From the IMG/VR virus record IMGVR_UViG_2695420564_000006: a stretch of 8,605 nucleotides of DNA; one strand, 5' to 3'. The stretch comes from a virus. Lineage: Duplodnaviria > Heunggongvirae > Uroviricota > Caudoviricetes. Every line of letters begins with the position of its first letter. The first letter of the stretch is position 1. Under the pieces are notes generated by a model that did no database searches, was not told where the DNA came from, and saw only the letters and a program-made list of their open reading frames with translations. Position numbers and translations under genes: made by a program. Of the stretch, positions 439 to 8,605 are shown piece by piece.

Positions 439-1257
439 TCACCCCCTGAATCCTGCCGGGATCTGGCTGTAGTCCACATTGTCGTAACTGGCTTTGAAGT
501 ACGGGTCCTCGCGTCTGGCTGCAGATACTGCAGGAACTTCCCAGGATTCTTCGAAATGACGATCCGGACCAAAGAACGTGACAGCCTGTTTCACAAATTG
601 TGTGCCGCTGTTACCCATCGCAGATACCCAGCCCGCGTAGCGTTTCACACCTTCCAGCAAGGTTTCGGGGTTTACCCCCTCATTCAAACGGGCTTTCCAG
701 GCTTTGAAGGCTGCAGATTTTGAATTGCCACCAGCACGTTTGGGATAGGCCAGCCATGCCTGCTCAAACTCCGGAGAGTATTCCGGTCGGTTTGAACGAA
801 CTCGCACAGACTCATCAGCAGATGCACCAACAGCTATTGGTTCATTGACTGGTTCTTTGACTGGTTCAAAAGAGTGACTGGTTCTGGGTGAATCTCCTGC
901 ACTACCCCCTGGTGCAACTCCTGCACTATCTGGTGAATTTGCTGCACCAGATAGTGAATTATTTGCACTACCCCCTAGTGAATCTCCTGCACCATCAAGA
1001 TGAAGGAGATAGATATTACTTGAGTTACCTTTTTCACCTTTCCGGGTGACTTTTTTTACCAGCCCGGACTCACAAAGGGCCGCAATATGATTCATCACAG
1101 AACGTTTGCTAATCTCGCACTGGTCAGCAATATGCTGGTAGCTGGGCCAGCACTCACTCTGATCGCTGGCATTATCAGCCAGCTTGATCAGAACCAGTTT
1201 TCGCAATGGATTACCCACTCGAATTTTCATCGCTTTAACCATCAGCTCCATACTCAT
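439..1257 (-). CDS. phage-type replication initiation protein: N-terminal helix-turn-helix domain, repetitive Gly/Ser/Ala/Pro linker, C-terminal domain
   Basis: 272-aa ORF in the track. N-terminal region has an HTH-like segment (SYQHIADQCEISKRSVMNHIAALCESGLV). Central low-complexity linker (GAGDSLGGSANNSLSGAANSPDSAGVAPGGSAGDSP, EPVKEPVNEP) is encoded by tandem DNA repeats. Start overlaps the stop of the upstream ORF (ATGA at 1254-1257). Sits between Rha-like and PerC-like prophage genes. Confidence 0.6.
   Translation of the reverse strand: MSMELMVKAMKIRVGNPLRKLVLIKLADNASDQSECWPSYQHIADQCEISKRSVMNHIAALCESGLVKKVTRKGEKGNSSNIYLLHLDGAGDSLGGSANNSLSGAANSPDSAGVAPGGSAGDSPRTSHSFEPVKEPVNEPIAVGASADESVRVRSNRPEYSPEFEQAWLAYPKRAGGNSKSAAFKAWKARLNEGVNPETLLEGVKRYAGWVSAMGNSGTQFVKQAVTFFGPDRHFEESWEVPAVSAARREDPYFKASYDNVDYSQIPAGFRG
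887..994. repeat. iteron-like array: five imperfect ~18-bp direct repeats at 21-24 bp spacing (candidate replication origin inside the initiator gene)
   Basis: Units at 887-904 ggtgaatctcctgcacta, 911-928 ggtgcaactcctgcacta, 932-949 ggtgaatttgctgcacca, 953-970 agtgaattatttgcacta, 977-994 agtgaatctcctgcacca. Each is bounded by GGTG...CACC-type inverted ends. Three copies of (t)tgactggttc lie just upstream at 845-884, and a moderately AT-rich stretch follows at 996-1060. Confidence 0.5.
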
Positions 1258-1478: not shown

Positions 1479-1855
1479 TTGCGCCCCCTTACCTCTGAAG
1501 GGTTCAGCGACAAATTTATGAGGCAGGCCAGTGCCGAAGCATCATTAATATAGTCATACAAGCTAACAGCCAGCGGAGATTCGGCTTTTGCCAACATAGG
1601 ATAAAGCTGCTGCAGCCAGACCTGATGAATTGATGAAATGTAGGAATAGAGAACGCTGGCGTTATGTGCAACGTCGCTCAGTACAGAGGGATTTGAAAGC
1701 TGTTTCTCCATCTGGTTAAAGGCATTTATGTATGCCTCTTTGAACCGGGCAGCACGTTTACCAGTGAAGCCCATAGCAAGGAACGCGAAGCCATCGCGGG
1801 TGATTTGATAGCAAGGTAGTTTGCGGCCTGTGCAATCGGTGTAATCACTNANNGA
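1475..1855 (-). CDS. Rha-family phage regulatory protein, C-terminal part only (5' end lost at the N-run 1850-1853)
   Basis: Translation contains [51 protein letters not shown], matching the conserved C-terminal end of the Phage_pRha domain as I recall it. The expected N-terminal part of the domain is absent and the in-frame upstream sequence beyond the N-run is unrelated. The track ORF 1475-1909 uses a TTG in that unrelated sequence. Confidence 0.5.
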
Positions 1856-1973
1856 AGTTATCGACAACGACCGCGAAGACTGGAAGCGTATCTCGGCATC
1901 AATGCGCAAACAGCCTGATGCCCTTCGCTACAACCGCCAGACTATTTTTGGCCTTGTCCGTAAACGTCCGATC

Positions 1974-2378
1974 ACCCGCCGCGCATTGGGCAAAAAAGCG
2001 TGGCCCGGCGTGTGGACCAACTCGGTTTGCGGCCACCCACAGCAAGGAGAAAGTAATGAAGAGGCAGTGATCCGCCGTTGCCGCTTTGAACTGGGCGTGG
2101 AAATAACGCCCCCCGAACCGATCTATCCAGACTTCTACTATCGCGCCACCGACCCGAATGGCATTGTCGAAAATGAAGTCTGTCCGGTATTTGCCGCGCG
2201 AATTACCAGCGCGTTACAGCCCAACAATGATGAAGTAATGGATTATCAGTGGTGTGATTTAGCGCAGGTATTACGCGGTATCGATGCCACGCCGTGGGCA
2301 TTCAGCCCATGGATGGTAATGCAAGCGACAAATAGCGAAGCCAAAAAACGGTTGTCTGCATTTGCCCAGCGTAAATAA
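1974..2378 (+). CDS. idi: isopentenyl-diphosphate delta-isomerase (type 1, Nudix fold), C-terminal ~134 codons; 5' part not idi-like
   Basis: Translation [48 protein letters not shown]...[30 protein letters not shown] matches enterobacterial Idi. Convergent with lysS as in E. coli. The 38 in-frame codons upstream (1861-1973) do not resemble the Idi N-terminus. Confidence 0.8.
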
Positions 2379-2402
2379 AAAACCCCGACGATTGCCGGGG
2401 TT
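2379..2402. terminator. putative bidirectional intrinsic terminator between convergent idi and lysS
   Basis: GC-rich hairpin ccccg-acgattgc-cgggg (2383-2400), flanked by an A-run on the plus strand (2373-2382), which is a T-run for the minus-strand lysS transcript. Confidence 0.4.
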
Positions 2403-2420
2403 GTAAGCGTAGCGTAATGC

Positions 2421-3263
2421 TTATTTTACCGGACGCATCGCCGGGAACAGAATCACGTCGCGGATGGTGTGGCTGTTGGTGAACAGCATCACCATACGAT
2501 CGATACCAATCCCCAGACCCGCAGTTGGCGGTAAGCCATGTTCCAGCGCGGTGACGTAATCTTCGTCGTAGAACATCGCTTCGTCGTCGCCCGCCTCTTT
2601 CGCGGCAACCTGATCCTGGAAACGTTGCGCCTGATCTTCTGCGTCGTTCAGCTCGCTAAAGCCGTTACCGATTTCACGACCACCGATGAAGAATTCAAAG
2701 CGGTCAGTGATTTCCGGGTTAACGTCGTTACGGCGTGCCAGCGGAGAAACTTCTGCCGGATATTCAGTAATGAAGGTCGGCTGAATCAAATGTGCTTCTG
2801 CCACTTCTTCGAAGATCTCAGTTACGATACGGCCCAGTCCCCAGCTCTTCTCAACGTGAATGCCAATAGATTCAGCAATCGCTTTCGCAGAGTCGAAGTT
2901 ATCCAGATCCGCCATCTCAGTTTCCGGGCGGTATTTTTTGATCGCTTCACGCATGGTCAGTTTTTCAAACGGCTTACCGAAGTCCAGCGTCACGTCGCCG
3001 TAGGTTACTTCCGTCTTACCGAGAATATCCTGTGCCAGAGTACGGAACAGCGATTCGGTCAGCTCGATCAGATCTTTGTAATCTGCGTAAGCCATGTAGA
3101 GTTCCATCATAGTGAACTCTGGGTTATGGCGTACGGAGATACCTTCGTTACGGAAGTTACGGTTGATTTCGAACACACGCTCGAAGCCGCCAACCACCAG
3201 ACGCTTGAGGTACAGTTCCGGCGCGATACGCAGGTACATGTCGAGATCCAGCGCGTTATNNAN
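2421..3263 (-). CDS. lysS: lysyl-tRNA synthetase, C-terminal catalytic (class II) domain, ~280 codons; N-terminal anticodon-binding domain missing
   Basis: Translation ...[51 protein letters not shown]...[32 protein letters not shown] matches LysS. The frame hits a stop two codons beyond the N-run at 3260-3263, so the gene is truncated there. Confidence 0.9.
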
Positions 3264-3362
3264 GTTTCATGCCCGCAGCCAGGTGTTGTTACCCGATGAC
3301 GATGGTAGATTGCAGCCATTGACGCATCCACAGGGGATGACGCCATGGGACGAGGCTATCGC

Positions 3363-4604
3363 CCACNGGCANNNNTGAGCGAAACCCTGTTCAAACCCCG
3401 CTTTAAACATCCTGAAACGTCGACGCTAGTCCGCCGCTTTAATCACGGCGCGCAATCGCCTGTGCAGTCGGCCCTTGATGGCAAAACCATTCCCCATTGG
3501 TATCGCATGATTAACCGTTTGATGTGGATCTGGCGCGGCGTTGACCCGCGTGAAATCCTCGGCGTCCAGGCGCGTATTGTGATGAGCGATGCCGAACGCA
3601 CCGACGATGATTTATACGATACAGTAATTGGCTACCGCGGCGGCAACTGGATTTATGAGTGGGCTACCCAGGCGATGGAATGGCAGCAGAAAGCTTGTGC
3701 GGAAGAAGATCCGCAAGTCAGCGGGCGTCACTGGTTGCATGCAGCCACACTGTATAACATCGCCGCCTATCCGCATCTGAAAGGGGACGATCTGGCGGAG
3801 CAAGCCCAGGCGTTGTCAAACCGCGCTTATGAAGAGGCAGCGCAACGTCTGCCAGGAAGTATGCGGCAAATGGAGTTCACTGTTCCAGGCGGTGCGCCCA
3901 TCACTGGTTTTTTGCATATGCCAAAAGGCGATGGGCCATTCCCGACAGTATTAATGTGTGGCGGGCTGGATGCGATGCAAACAGATTATTACTCCCTTTA
4001 TGAGCGCTATTTTGCACCGCGCGGCATTGCAATGTTGACTATTGATATGCCTTCGGTCGGTTTCTCTTCAAAATGGAAGCTCACCCAGGACTCCAGTCTT
4101 CTGCATCAGCATGTTTTAAAGGCGTTGCCGAATGTGCCGTGGGTAGATCACACGCGCGTCGTGGCCTTTGGTTTCCGTTTTGGCGCTAACGTTGCTGTGC
4201 GTCTGGCTTACCTTGAATCACCGCGTTTGAAAGCGGTGGCTTGCCTTGGTCCGGTAGTTCATACCTTGTTAAGTGACTTTCAGTGCCAGCAACAGGTGCC
4301 GGAAATGTACCTTGACGTTCTGGCGAGTCGTTTAGGGATGCACGATGCTTCAGACGACGCTTTGCGCGTAGAGCTGAACCGCTATTCGTTAAAAGTGCAA
4401 GGGTTGCTGGGGCGTCGCTGTCCAACGCCAATGTTATCAGGTTACTGGAAGAACGATCCTTTTAGCCCGGAAGAGGACTCGCGGTTAATCGCTTCGTCAT
4501 CTGCTGACGGTAAATTGTTAGAGATTCCGTTCAATCCGGTGTATCGGAATTTTGACAAAGCGCTTCAGGAAATCACCAACTGGATCGAAAAACGATTGTG
4601 TTAA
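3363..4604 (+). CDS. frsA: fermentation/respiration switch protein FrsA (alpha/beta hydrolase); native ATG absent
   Basis: Translation from codon 2, (T)[30 protein letters not shown]...NWIEKRLC, matches FrsA over its full length. N's at 3367 and 3372-3375 fall in codons 2-5. The bases where the ATG should be (3360-3362) read cgc. An in-frame ATG at 3345 lies in unrelated upstream sequence. Confidence 0.9.
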
Positions 4605-5063
<459 letters not shown>

Positions 5064-5073
5064 CTGACATGTA

Positions 5074-5103
5074 CCGGGTTAGATGCTCGTACATCTAACC
5101 CGG
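5074..5103. terminator. perfect 12-bp-stem hairpin downstream of crl (possible terminator or RNA structure)
   Basis: ccgggttagatg (5074-5085), loop ctcgta, catctaacccgg (5092-5103), exact reverse complements. No immediate U-run; a T-run follows at 5116-5121. Confidence 0.45.
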
Positions 5104-5121
5104 CCTGGAATATTAGTTTTT

Positions 5122-5155
5122 GTAGGCCGGATAAGGCGTTCTCGTTGCATCCGGC
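5122..5155. repeat. REP (repetitive extragenic palindromic) element
   Basis: The reverse complement gccggatgcaacgagaacgccttatccggcctac fits the E. coli REP consensus (GCCGGATGCGGCG...CGCCTTATCCGGCCTAC). Lies in the crl-phoE intergenic space. Confidence 0.7.
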
Positions 5156-5163
5156 AATATTCG

Positions 5164-5976
5164 TTAAAATTGATATGTCATTCCAACCGCGACAATATCA
5201 TCATTATTAATATTCAACTTGTTATTGCTATCCAGTTGGTTGATTTTATAATCAACAAACGCTGACATATTTTTGTTGAAAAAATATGTTGCACTGACAT
5301 CAATATAATTGACCAGATCCTCATCACCGATGCCTTCAATATCTTTTCCTTTTGATAATACATAACCTAACGATGGACGCAGACCAAAATCAAATTGATA
5401 TTGCGCGACGGCTTCAAAATTTTGTGTTTTATTAGCAAAACCGCCAGAAATTGGCGTCATGTTACGTGTTTCAGAATAAAAAGTTGCCAGGTAAATATCG
5501 TTGGCGTCATATTTCAGGCCTGTTGCCCATGCTTCTGCGCGCTTGCCTGTACCACGGCTTTGCAGGTTTTGCTCATTGGTGCGGTCAGAATTAGTATAGG
5601 CTCCGCTGATGGCAAAATCGCTGCCGCCAAAGTCATAACTCAGTGAAGTACCGAATCCATCACCGTTTTGCTTTTTCACATCGCGATTTTCGTTTTTTCC
5701 TTGATATTGCAGGGTTAAGTTCAGGCCATCTACAATGCCGAAGAAGTCGGTATTACGATAAGTTGCCAGTCCGCTGGCGCGCTTGGTCATAAAGTTGTCG
5801 GTTTGTGCGGAGGAATCGCCACCAAATTCCGGGAACATATCGGTCCAGGCTTCTACGTCATATAACGCGCCCAGGTTACGACCATAATCAAAAGAACCCA
5901 AATCTTTATATTTCAATCCGGCAAACGCGAGGTGCGTTTTTTGCTGTGTGGTATCGCTTTCAGCTTTATTCCCGGC
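5164..5976 (-). CDS. phoE: outer-membrane phosphoporin PhoE, C-terminal ~270 codons; N-terminal ~90 codons including signal peptide missing
   Basis: Translation [53 protein letters not shown]...VAVGMTYQF, with the porin C-terminal F, matches PhoE. The frame breaks at the N-run 5977-5983 and sequence beyond is unrelated. The track start at 5916 is a TTG inside the gene. Confidence 0.9.
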
Positions 5977-6027
5977 NNNCNGNGGCGATGAGTACCGCTA
6001 ACAACAATGTTGGCGGCGCTGCGCCGG

Positions 6028-6111
6028 GGAACCTGCAAGATCAAAGCAATCGGCGGCTTCGCAGATCCCCTTTATAAACATCAGGCAGATTACTAACATC
6101 CATTTTTTCAT
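6028..6111 (-). CDS. N-terminal fragment (~27 codons) of an F-like plasmid lytic transglycosylase (orf169 / gene 19 family), truncated
   Basis: ATG at 6109-6111 (minus) with a GGTGGA SD-like motif 5 nt upstream. [27 protein letters not shown] matches the signal-peptide N-terminus of the F orf169 / R1 P19 family as I recall it. Similarity stops after ~27 codons and the frame ends 10 codons later. Confidence 0.45.
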
Positions 6112-6119
6112 TTTTCCAC

Positions 6120-6217
6120 CTCTGGTGACTTTATCCGTAAATAATTTAACCCACTCCACAAAAAGGCTCAACAGGTTGGTGGTTCTCACAACCAAAAGCG
6201 GCANANNCNNCGCNNNG
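6120..6217. other. F-like plasmid oriT-like fragment (nic-proximal region), partly N-masked
   Basis: ggtggttctcacaaccaaaagcggca-N-a-NN-c-NN-cgc-NNN resembles the F oriT segment ggtggttctcaccaccaaaagcaccacaccccacgc (reverse complement of the nic-site strand). It is immediately upstream of the orf169-like start, as on F-like plasmids. Confidence 0.4.
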
Positions 6218-6218
6218 G

Positions 6219-6751
6219 GGGGATAAAACCACATTTTGGCAAGCTAACGTCAGGGCCACGAACATGCTGGCACAGACGGCAGGCAGGTTGTGTATTCCCC
6301 GGTTTATCCATATCTCCACGCCCGCGGTGTATTTTGATTTTCAGCATCATTATGACCTGCAAGAAACGTATCTTGCCCGGGCATTCTCCAGCTATTACGC
6401 CAGCAGCAAATACGCTGCTGAGCAGGCTATTGCCGGGGCGGTATCTCAATATCCGACCACGACGTTTATTCTTTTGCGTCCCCGTGGTTTGTTTGGCCCC
6501 CATGACCAGGTAATTGTTCCTCGTCTGATGCGGCAGCTGCAACAAGGCGGCGGCCTTCTACGTTTACCGCGCGGTGGTGAAGCGTTATTGGATCTCACGT
6601 TCGTGCAAAATGTGGTGTATGCCATGCAACTGGCAACGCAAGTTGAAGGATTACGCTCGGGCAGTATTTACAACATCAGCAATCATCAGCCGCAGCCGTT
6701 ATCTGTGATGCTTGACGCCTTGCTGCGCCAGCAACTGGGCTTGAGTTACCA
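6219..6751 (+). CDS. NAD-dependent epimerase/dehydratase (extended SDR) family protein, YbjS-like, internal-to-C-terminal fragment
   Basis: In-frame translation from 6219, ...FWQANVRATNMLAQTAGRLCIPRFIHISTPAVYFDFQHHYDLQETYLARAFSSYYASSKYAAEQ..., carries the SDR catalytic YxxxK (YASSK) and resembles E. coli YbjS-type proteins. The Rossmann N-terminus is absent and the C-terminus changes character after the N at 6752. Confidence 0.5.
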
Positions 6752-6889
6752 NAAGGCAACTCTGAAAAAAGCGAGGAAATACTGCTACCATCAGGAAGAT
6801 GAGTCACAATCAACGGAAGAACTTCTACAACCATAATATAAATTGCAGAGAACATTACAAACTTAATGAGTGCAGTACGAAAAATAAAA

Positions 6890-7630
6890 CCANNACTGGC
6901 CCGCGCGGTGGTTGCCGGGTTAGCGCAAGCAGATACGCTGAGGATGCGTTTTACGGAAGATAACGGCGAAGTCTGGCAATGGGTCGATGATGCGCTGACG
7001 TTCGAACAGCCAGAAATTATTGACCTGCGTACCAACATTGATCCGCACGGTACTGCGCGGGCATTAATGCAGGCGGATTTACAACAAAACCTGCGTATCG
7101 ATAGTGGTAATCCGCTTGTTTTTCATAAGATTATACAGGTGGAGGATAATCGTTGGTACTGGTATCAACGTTATCACCATTTGCTGGTCGATGGCTTCAG
7201 TTTCCCGGCCATTACCCGCCAGATAGCCAACATTTATTGTGCCTGGCTGCGTGGCGAACCTACGCCTGCGTCGCCGTTTACTTCTTTCACTGATGTAGTG
7301 GAAGAGTACCAGCAATATCGCGAAAGCGAAGCCTGGCAGCGTGATGCGGCTTTCTGGGCGGATCAACGTCGTCAACTACCGCCGCCAGCGTCACTTTCGC
7401 CTGCACCTTTACCGGGGCGCAGTGCCTCGGCAGATATTCTGCGCCTGAAACTGGAATTTACTGACGGGGAATTCCGCCAACTGGCAGCGCAACTTCCGAC
7501 CGTACAACGTACCGATTTAGCTCTCGCGCTGGCGGCATTGTGGCTGGGGCGATTGTGCAACCGCATGGACTATGCCGCCGGATTTATCTTTATGCGCCGT
7601 ATGGGCTCGGCGGCGTTGACGGCTACCGGA
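6890..7630 (+). CDS. entF: enterobactin non-ribosomal peptide synthetase EntF, N-terminal condensation-domain fragment (~247 codons)
   Basis: Translation P-x-LARAVVAGLAQADTLRMRFTEDNGEVWQWVDDALTFEQPEIIDLRTNIDPHGTA...YWYQRYHHLLVDGFSFPAIT...LCNRMDYAAGFIFMRRMGSAALTATG matches EntF residues ~30-275, including the HHxxxDG condensation motif (HHLLVDG). Flanked by unrelated sequence at both ends. Confidence 0.85.
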
Positions 7631-7631
7631 N

Positions 7632-8441
7632 GAGCTGCAATTGCCCACTTCAACTTATCGTTTTGCCGATAGCGAAAGTCTTTTCCGCGAGGCGGTTGCC
7701 GACATCGGCTATCCCTGCATTGTTAAACCGGTGATGAGTTCCTCTGGCAAGGGGCAGACATTTATTCGCTCTGCCGAACAGCTTAGCCAGGCATGGGAAT
7801 ACGCCCAGCAAGGCGGTCGCGCCGGAGCAGGTCGCGTGATTGTTGAAGGCGTGGTTAAGTTTGACTTCGAAATTACATTACTGACCGTCAGTGCCGCGGA
7901 TGGAGTCCATTTCTGTGCCCCCGTAGGCCATCGCCAGGAAGATGGCGACTACCGGGAATCATGGCAACCACAGCAAATGAGTCCGCTGGCCCTGGAACGC
8001 GCGCAGGAAATTGCCCGCAAAGTGGTACTGGCGCTGGGCGGTTATGGTCTGTTTGGCGTCGAGTTGTTTGTTTGTGGTGATGAGGTGATTTTCAGCGAAG
8101 TCTCCCCTCGCCCGCATGATACCGGGATGGTGACGTTAATTTCCCAGGATCTTTCGGAGTTTGCCCTGCACGTACGCGCTTTTCTCGGTCTTCCGGTTGG
8201 CGCTATTCGCCAGTATGGTCCGGCCGCTTCAGCCGTTATCCTGCCGCAACTGACCAGCCAGAACATCACGTTTGATAATGTGCAGAATGCCGTTGGCGCA
8301 GGTTTGCAGATTCGTTTATTTGGTAAGCCGGAAATTGATGGCAGCCGTCGTCTGGGGGTAGCGCTGGCGACCGCTGAGAGTGTTGATGAGGCCATTGAAC
8401 GTGCGAAGCTCGCCGCCGGACAGGTGAAAGTACAAGGTTAA
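7632..8441 (+). CDS. purT: formate-dependent phosphoribosylglycinamide formyltransferase (GAR transformylase 2, ATP-grasp), C-terminal ~268 codons
   Basis: Translation [51 protein letters not shown]...[14 protein letters not shown] matches PurT from about residue 124 to the end. The entF frame runs directly into it at 7630 with no intergenic space. Confidence 0.9.
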
Positions 8442-8464
8442 ACCCGGCAAAAAACGCGACAAAA

Positions 8465-8490
8465 ATGCCCGATTAACAATCGGGCATTTT
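8465..8490. terminator. bidirectional rho-independent terminator between convergent purT and eda
   Basis: Stem atgcccgatt (8465-8474), loop aac, aatcgggcat (8478-8487), followed by ttt and preceded by aaaaa, so it has a U-run on either strand. Confidence 0.6.
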
Positions 8491-8495
8491 GATTC

Positions 8496-8531
8496 TTACA
8501 GCTTCGCGCCTTCTACAGCTTCGCGCGCCAG
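8496..8531 (-). CDS. eda: last 11 codons plus stop of KDPG aldolase (Eda); rest of the gene absent
   Basis: Minus-strand translation LAREAVEGAKL-stop matches the Eda C-terminus as I recall it, and eda is the native convergent neighbour of purT. Upstream of the N-run 8532-8536 the frame no longer resembles Eda. Confidence 0.35.
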   Translation of the reverse strand: MAREAVEGAKL

Positions 8532-8605
8532 NNNANTATCAGCAGGAGCTGCTGGAAGGAAAACCAAAGCCCAACAACAGCGAACTGGTGGTACGCAACT
8601 GGTAT

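Follow-up and report, generated by a model that had tools for sequence, protein, structure and literature searches.

A candidate lambda-type replication origin within the initiator gene of a lambdoid prophage fragment

The window analysed here is a stretch of 8,605 nucleotides (nt) of caudoviricete DNA (IMG/VR virus record IMGVR_UViG_2695420564_000006), the minus strand of which carries, at 439..1257, a gene for a replication initiator of 272 amino acids. Comparison with the relatives of this gene indicates that positions 834-994, inside the reading frame, are probably a replication origin of the lambda type, composed of five dyad iterons and a nearly invariant 30-nt element. On the comparative evidence, selection acts on the DNA of the iterons and the element and not on the peptide that they encode. 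The relatives comprised a set of 80 close loci from IMG/VR, a second set of 80 loci with one genome per species and, in addition, two recombinant loci (L162 and L163), several named phages and two plasmids.

Iterons and an invariant element in the initiator gene

A repeat search identified five 20-nt repeats of a single family, with a spacing of 24/21/21/24 nt. Numbered in gene orientation, they are iteron 1 (TGGTGCAGGAGATTCACTAG, 975..994), iteron 2 (TAGTGCAAATAATTCACTAT, 951..970, with the most degenerate spacer), iteron 3 (TGGTGCAGCAAATTCACCAG, 930..949), iteron 4 (TAGTGCAGGAGTTGCACCAG, 909..928) and iteron 5 (TAGTGCAGGAGATTCACCCA, 885..904), the last of which overlaps the invariant element by 3 nt. 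Three exact copies of TGACTGGTTC, at 846, 858 and 875, lie beside them, and Tandem Repeats Finder (TRF) finds both arrays. The consensus 18-mer, allowing up to three mismatches, has four matches in the window, all of them in the array, compared to 0.01 expected from 200 shuffles. In the coding orientation all copies conform to T(A/G)GTGCA-N5-T(T/G)CAC(C/T); the arms GTGCA and T.CAC are invariant in 5/5 copies and all five spacer positions vary, which is the pattern of a dimer-bound site. The five copies share one reading frame and encode residues 89-125 of the initiator.

An earlier reading of this DNA, made from the sequence only, had reported five imperfect repeats starting at 887, 911, 932, 953 and 977, with three copies of ttgactggttc beside them, and both arrays were recovered here, the former as the 20-nt copies from 885 on. 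The GGTG...CACC ends that it ascribed to each repeat are exact only in the copy at 932-949, the others having (A/G)GTG...CAC(C/T). Its ordering of the parts, in which the ttgactggttc copies precede the repeats and an AT-rich tract follows, depends on the strand: the gene is on the minus strand, and the order in gene orientation is N-terminal domain (N-domain), AT-richer tract, iterons and TGACTGGTTC copies.

The invariant element occupies 858..887 on the minus strand (CCAGAAYCAGTCACTCTNNTGAACCAGTCA, or CCAGAACCAGTCACTCTTTTGAACCAGTCA in the coding orientation) and contains two direct repeats of GAACCAGTCA. A less strictly conserved extension (834..857, minus strand) adds a third GAACCAGTCA and a fourth, degenerate copy, GAACCAATAG, at a spacing of 12 nt. 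The same layout, in which 2-7 dyad iterons precede AGAAYCAGTCACTCTNNTGAACCAGTCA at a distance of 0-2 nt, is found in the window (858-994) and in 182 non-redundant members of the family, and in all members the element stands directly 3' of the last iteron in gene orientation. An exact-pattern scan of IMG/VR gave the same picture, with 120 of 120 occurrences of the element located directly 3' of a family N-domain and its iterons. The element is nearly invariant across hosts of 43% to 64% GC; the distant members mEp554, Pseudomonas phage MD8 and the Arsenophonus plasmid paPv8 possess degenerate GAAYCAGTCA or GAACC repeats in an AT-richer context.

The conservation of the element extends to its synonymous positions. 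Third-position conservation in its ten codons is 0.90-1.0 (about 77 species), compared to a mean of 0.61 in those N-domain codons whose amino acid is conserved. There are 8 synonymous versus 131 nonsynonymous differences in the element and 2211 versus 1492 in the N-domain (Fisher p 2e-40), such that synonymous differences per codon amount to 0.010 and 0.31, respectively, and nonsynonymous ones are similar (0.17 and 0.21). In the N-domain, Arg is encoded mostly by CGC/CGG and Ser mostly by AGC/TCC/TCG; the element, by contrast, has AGA, AGT, TCT and CCA as fixed codons, also where the GC content of the locus is about 60%. Within +/-400 nt, GC content across the family drops lowest at the element (38-44% versus 60-68% in the last iterons), and the element is the GC minimum even in Pseudomonas of 60% GC.

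The constrained low-GC flank of the array is the ttgactggttc block and not the AT-rich tract at about 1000-1039 to which the sequence-only reading had pointed. The latter does have the lowest local GC in the window (0.325), but as a family-wide feature it was rejected, since its third-position conservation of 0.33-0.64 is that of ordinary synonymous drift and the GC dip is shallow. The element is our candidate for the unwinding or loader-entry core of the origin.

The iterons are likewise constrained as DNA. Every gene of the 182 non-redundant relatives contains 2-7 dyad copies, and the linker peptides diverge widely among relatives while the DNA dyad stays. In the largest class, of 332 copies, 33 use a second frame and 18 have the opposite orientation (about 15% together), and these shifts of frame and orientation alter the peptide (GAGDSP, VVQEIHQ, GESPAP) with the dyad kept. 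In Pseudomonas, Enterobacter, Aeromonas, Lelliottia and other genera, (A/G)GTGCA-N5-TTCACC occurs 3-7 times; more than 30 species have one copy off-frame, giving VVQEIHQ in place of GAGDSP, and inverted copies (GGTGAATCTCCTGCACC) give GESPAP. In the iteron next to the element, located by position in 24 species-level relatives and hence free of the circularity of arm matching, the third codon positions are all conserved at 0.92 or more, and what varies are the first two positions of the spacer codons. A 200-nt linker window contains 20.4 iterons per kb, as against 0.07 per kb in 1.19 Mb of flanking DNA (about 290-fold).

Plain low-complexity coding repeats of a Gly/Ser/Ala/Pro linker, spread by slippage and devoid of any function as DNA, could account for the disorder of the encoded linker, for the single frame of the five window copies and for copy numbers that change by whole units (homologues are 242-302 amino acids long, and their linkers differ by whole repeat units). 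However, the DNA is preserved in off-frame and inverted copies whereas the peptide differs, nonsynonymous positions vary but synonymous ones are frozen, half-sites covary with the recognition helix (see below), and two frameshifted, truncated pseudogenes (L105 and L114) still carry iterons and element intact, read off-frame (…PEPVTLLNQ…). We regard this explanation as highly improbable, the frame and orientation data effectively excluding it. DNA conservation beyond synonymous drift had been set beforehand as a test of the array, and a conserved linker peptide over freely varying DNA had been named as the outcome that would speak against an origin; the dyads kept in other frames and orientations and the third positions at 0.92 or above are the opposite of that outcome, and the array is indeed more than a coding repeat, as had been proposed.

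Two alternative-frame open reading frames (ORFs) span the array, at 834-968 on the minus strand (…VVQEIHPEPVTLLNQ…) and at 888-1049 on the plus strand (MNLLHYPLVQLLHY…), and both are by-products of the repeats; the frame of the former is the one in which some relatives read one of their iterons. As for a programmed frameshift at TCTTTTG, the variation of its two central bases (TT/TC/CT/CC) led us to reject it.

Initiator domains and iteron specificity

The initiator gene, identified in the ORF list, matches the PHROG family phrog_270, "replication initiation protein" (E 3e-87), and its relatives in SfV, mEp460 and Stx2a_WGPS2 are annotated as "replication protein" or "replication protein O". 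A Pfam scan at E<=0.01 returned only HTH_36 (residues 17-67), DnaD_N, B-block_TFIIIC and HTH_20; NCBIfam contains no model for the protein, and a sequence search of the Protein Data Bank with it gave nothing meaningful. The AlphaFold model, which is confident only for residues 1-88, displays an N-terminal winged-helix domain in this region (994..1257, minus strand; predicted local distance difference test, pLDDT, 76-88), with helices at residues 3-11, 17-28, 40-47 and 51-63 and wing strands at 67-73 and 79-85. It is followed by a disordered inter-domain linker (residues 89-156; 790..993, minus strand; pLDDT <50 for residues 91-156) and a C-terminal domain (C-domain) that is helical in the model (residues 157-272; 442..789, minus strand). 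Iterons, element and extension are all contained in the linker-coding 790..993, between the winged helix with its HTH_36 match and the C-domain, where the earlier reading had located the repeats. Foldseek matches of the model are generic winged helices only (E 0.02-0.08), and the N-domain is therefore not placeable in one initiator family by its fold. Its signature MSMxLM...VGNPLRKLVL..ADNA.D.GECWPSYQ represents columns that are invariant in our alignment A1 and in about 80 species-level loci.

Among the relatives compared, the half-site sequence varies together with the predicted recognition helix (residues ~49-63, helix 51-63 in the AlphaFold model; 1069-1113, minus strand). The helix S[KR]RSVMNH is found with half-sites GTGCA/TTCAC, the helices SKRSVMRH, KRSAMRH and KRTAMRH with GTGAC/GTCAC, [GAS]RSTVK.H with GGGC[AG]/TGCCC, SRRSVI.H with GTGCA/TGCAC, and MSRKTAIGH with GTGTA/TACAC. 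DRSTVR[KR]H is accompanied by TGTAGGC-N5-(GCCTACA-like) sites, CSKSAVR.H by TGCC-N7-GGCA, and the L163/Stx2a_F403-type N-domain, with helix VSRSTVKSH, by iterons of the sequence GGGGCAGGAGCTGCCC. A single helix class spans several genera and a single genus holds several classes, and the covariation is thus no effect of host composition.

The natural recombinants L162 and L163 bear on the same question. Their DNA identity to the window is 93-100% downstream of nt ~380 of the gene (the element and beyond); upstream of the element it falls to 33-80%, and the iterons are different ones, matching their different N-domains. The iterons therefore travel with the N-domain and not with the C-domain, and belong to the former. 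Covariation and co-inheritance together lead us to infer that the iterons are the predicted binding sites of the initiator's N-domain; with the constraint at the DNA level, they lend support to the embedded origin that the sequence-only reading had suggested.

The crossover in L162 and L163 (window gene nt ~372-385) coincides with the start of the invariant element, which may also serve as a homology patch for module exchange. Seven unrelated types of C-domain were found behind the same module of N-domain, iterons and element. In three loci (L098, L123 and L125) the family N-domain, iterons and element are fused to a lambda O-like C-domain, which a tblastn search places at lambda 39254-39496 (41.8% identity, E 2e-15); phage 434 and Stx1 phages are matched as well. 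As some relatives join the lambda O C-domain in this manner, the module takes the place of the lambda O N-domain and origin; to judge by these fusions, it holds that exact place and would be interchangeable with lambda's. The window's own C-domain belongs to another cluster and is not lambda O-like. The PHROG matches for it include "DnaD-like helicase loader" and "primosomal protein" families, and the exchangeable C-domain presumably recruits a helicase or loader. The gene that follows the initiator of L123 (2421-3161) is read from its ATP-binding motifs as a putative DnaC-like loader, and in ZF40 and in the 41-kb Klebsiella element pKPTCM2-4 a helicase lies downstream.

These exchanges raise the possibility that the block at 834-887 is not an unwinding site but a crossover joint for N- and C-modules, or a site for a host factor or another phage protein. 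In L162 and L163 the recombination boundary coincides exactly with the beginning of the element, this is where seven types of C-domain attach, and the AT-richness of the block is modest, all of which would agree with such a role. Recombination alone, however, cannot freeze 30 nt beside an N-domain whose codons average 0.31 synonymous differences, in every case the element adjoins the last iteron, its GAAYCAGTCA/GAACC repeats persist in the AT-rich context of distant members, and neither a DnaA box nor a convincing integration host factor (IHF) consensus was seen in it by eye (no formal scan was made). We consider a joint or factor site decidedly unlikely. A more tentative extension of the origin proposal, which we put at somewhat below an even chance, is that the ~30-nt block is a portable, sequence-specific origin core, read as single-stranded DNA by the invariant part of the N-domain or by a host factor, with iterons and C-domain swapped around it. 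If so, the origin would be modular in three parts, with a middle part fixed at the nucleotide level in hosts of 43% to 64% GC and a core common to a very large family of temperate phages and phage-plasmids from Gammaproteobacteria.

Proposed origin and comparison with known systems

In the mechanism that we propose, dimers of the N-terminal winged helix would bind the five iterons via the recognition helix (residues 49-63) and sit on one face of the DNA helix, thereby holding a nucleoprotein array directly against the invariant block of GAAYCAGTCA repeats (858-887, with its extension to 834). Opening of the duplex would take place at this block, where the replicative helicase would enter by way of the exchangeable C-domain and a host or phage helicase/loader. 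Within the gene, the DNA elements would be tolerated on account of the disorder of the linker that they encode. That the initiator binds the iterons, that the element unwinds, that a helicase is recruited and that the region acts as an origin is here inferred from the comparisons described above.

In lambda, the N-terminal part of O is origin-specific and the C-terminal part contacts the helicase loader. Lambda has its origin in the middle of the initiator gene, with 4-6 dyad iterons of about 19 bp bound by the N-terminal part of the initiator, after which comes an AT-rich tract; additional iterons lengthen O, and iteron copy number varies by whole units between lambda and Shiga toxin (Stx) phages (PMC7466680). 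The window exhibits the corresponding layout, namely five dyad iterons of 20 nt, spaced about two helical turns apart inside the initiator ORF. Unlike lambda O, its N-domain is of the HTH_36 type, with no Phage_rep_O (PF04492) match at E<=0.01; the iteron sequence is unrelated, the flank is a block of invariant GAAYCAGTCA repeats with a GC content of about 40%, where lambda has a strongly AT-rich tract, and the module is without a P-like gene. Because the architecture is that of classical lambda, this is not a new kind of system, although the origin of this initiator family is undescribed in the literature searched.

The iterons might alternatively bind the initiator in order to regulate, as an autorepression roadblock, in copy-number control by handcuffing, or in incompatibility or exclusion, with the true origin elsewhere. 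The comparative data are those of binding sites and are silent on the outcome of binding, and plasmid iterons are reported to do both jobs (PMC4980987). In contrast, the ~1.2 Mb of flanking DNA contains no further cluster of these sites, the array never occurs apart from the invariant low-GC element, which lies at a fixed distance, the position of the array is that of ori-lambda, and the module replaces the lambda O N-domain and origin before a lambda O C-domain. A purely regulatory role is accordingly judged unlikely.

Several points weigh against 834-994 being an origin. The element is only moderately AT-rich (about 40% GC, and 44% for window positions 833-887), and the window's lowest-GC stretch lies on the other side of the iterons. 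No helicase or loader gene adjoins the module in the window. Among 49 close alleles from Escherichia coli, variable sites are nearly as frequent in the iterons (7.3%) as in the N-domain (8.4%), in a comparison of low power. The comparative counts ignore shared ancestry, with no correction for phylogeny, and the iteron consensus of each class was gathered by arm matching, so that its arm-conservation values are circular. Finally, the literature searched contains no experimental binding, unwinding or origin activity for any member of the family; the 18-mers of the element have no occurrences in it, and the origin is undescribed there, the older SfV, ST64B and ZF40 genome papers being outside its coverage.

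Two groups of plasmids offer further parallels. In the RepA_N plasmids of Firmicutes (pSK41, pAD1 type), the origin iterons are situated inside the central, poorly conserved part of rep, and the N-terminal DNA-binding domain of the protein has a DnaD-like winged-helix fold. The likeness of the window protein to these includes a weak DnaD_N match (E 2.8e-4, below Pfam's cutoff) and the presence of 4pql ("N-Terminal domain of DNA binding protein") and of DnaD-N 2v79 among the many winged helices listed by Foldseek. The window protein differs in that it has no Pfam RepA_N match and belongs to a gammaproteobacterial phage module, and the fold likeness is generic, as noted above. In the origins of RK2 and F, as in the window, the iterons adjoin an unwinding element (in the window, a candidate one) with short direct repeats. 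The Rep proteins TrfA of RK2 and RepE of F are reported to bind one strand of these repeats sequence-specifically (PMC4081077), which would provide a precedent for the conserved GAAYCAGTCA repeats. Unlike the window, however, RK2 and F have their origins outside the rep gene, a Rep protein of another fold family and 13-mers that are strongly AT-rich.

The same module is found in Shiga-toxin phages classified by replication type. Stx2a_WGPS2, with a 97.6% match to the window, is the reference for the "Eru6" type, and HTH_36 proteins occur in Eru5, Eru6, Eru8, Eru11 and Eru13 (PMC8951638). The Eru papers consider these regions non-lambdoid and state that nothing is known of the proteins in Eru phage replication (PMC8951638); they make no mention of iterons or of an origin. 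The Eru5 reference, Stx2a_F403, encodes a relative of the initiator with its own iterons and element. Under the three-part reading given above, several of the "non-lambdoid" Eru types would also start replication as lambda does. The proposed origin would provide a concrete candidate for a module that is found in most of the complete E. coli genomes searched (4583 of 5426 match some part of a 1.95-kb query and 457 hold most of it). The module occurs as well in phages of Salmonella, Shigella, Klebsiella, Pseudomonas, Vibrio and Aeromonas, and among the Stx phages it includes Eru5 and Eru6, on whose replication, according to the literature of 2022, nothing is known. Since replication of Stx phages drives toxin gene dosage, a defined pair of origin and initiator would be a usable handle. 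The family also constitutes a natural table of recognition-helix variants versus DNA half-sites, and a striking case of a nucleotide-invariant element within a coding region.

Prophage context and related replicons

Ten plasmid records from Arsenophonus, 28-104 kb long and in most cases close to 40 kb, also encode a relative of the initiator. In the 40-kb circular plasmid paPv8 of Arsenophonus nasoniae (L290; MOB-suite rep_cluster_2302), the gene (3007-3780) lies beside ParM, partition and phage lysis genes and contains GTGACA-type iterons and GAAYCAGTCA repeats. These records may be phage-plasmids that replicate from this module.

Positions 1-1849 of the window hold part of the early-right operon of an SfV/mEp460/"Eru6"-type lambdoid prophage, read on the minus strand. 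In this direction the gene order is a regulator of the Rha family (1475-1909, truncated by an N-containing joint), a 74-residue ORF of phrog_1153, function not known (1254-1478, overlapping the initiator start by ATGA), the initiator, and a PerC-family gene (2-436, from the window ORFs and family scans). The DNA is 97-98% identical to mEp460, phiSTEC1575-Stx2k, Stx2a_WGPS2 and hundreds of E. coli prophages. In mEp460 the module runs from cI and cro through Rha, the 74-residue gene, the "replication protein" and PerC to a reductase-annotated gene, RusA and Q; the gene after PerC is annotated "phosphoadenosine phosphosulfate reductase", with the note "similar to ... phage N-6-adenine-methyltransferase", and the full module in the mEp460 record has no P-like or helicase gene. 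The Rha homologue of mEp460 is 1152 nt long (383 residues) and the window copy is cut at the joint at 1850, where the prophage fragment therefore ends artificially. The 74-residue ORF was rejected as a conserved partner of the initiator: it occurs in close E. coli-type modules and is absent from all 87 of the 87 species-level and distant loci, and is thus outside the core module.

The window protein itself has Ser34 (1156-1158) where 17 of the 18 aligned homologues have Gly, as well as Leu200 for Met and an Asp for Gly between iterons 3 and 4. These changes are either strain-specific or errors of a low-quality assembly. An Rfam scan of 400-1950 (E<=1) gave only two sub-threshold chance matches, and hence no known RNA element.

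The rest of the window (1850-8605) is a mosaic of unlinked E. coli gene fragments that meet at short N-containing joints (1850-1853, 3260-3263, 3367-3375, 5977-5983, 6204-6216, 6752, 6893-6894, 7631 and 8532-8536). Using NCBIfam, we identified among them a truncated idi, the C-terminal half of a lysine-tRNA ligase, frsA, crl, the C-terminal part of phoE, a reductase/dehydratase-like piece, EntF residues ~43-287 and the C-terminal part of purT. We take the genes of these fragments not to be neighbours on the K-12 map, and for this reason the record has the look of a draft that was stitched together or ordered along a reference, not of a genuine contiguous locus.

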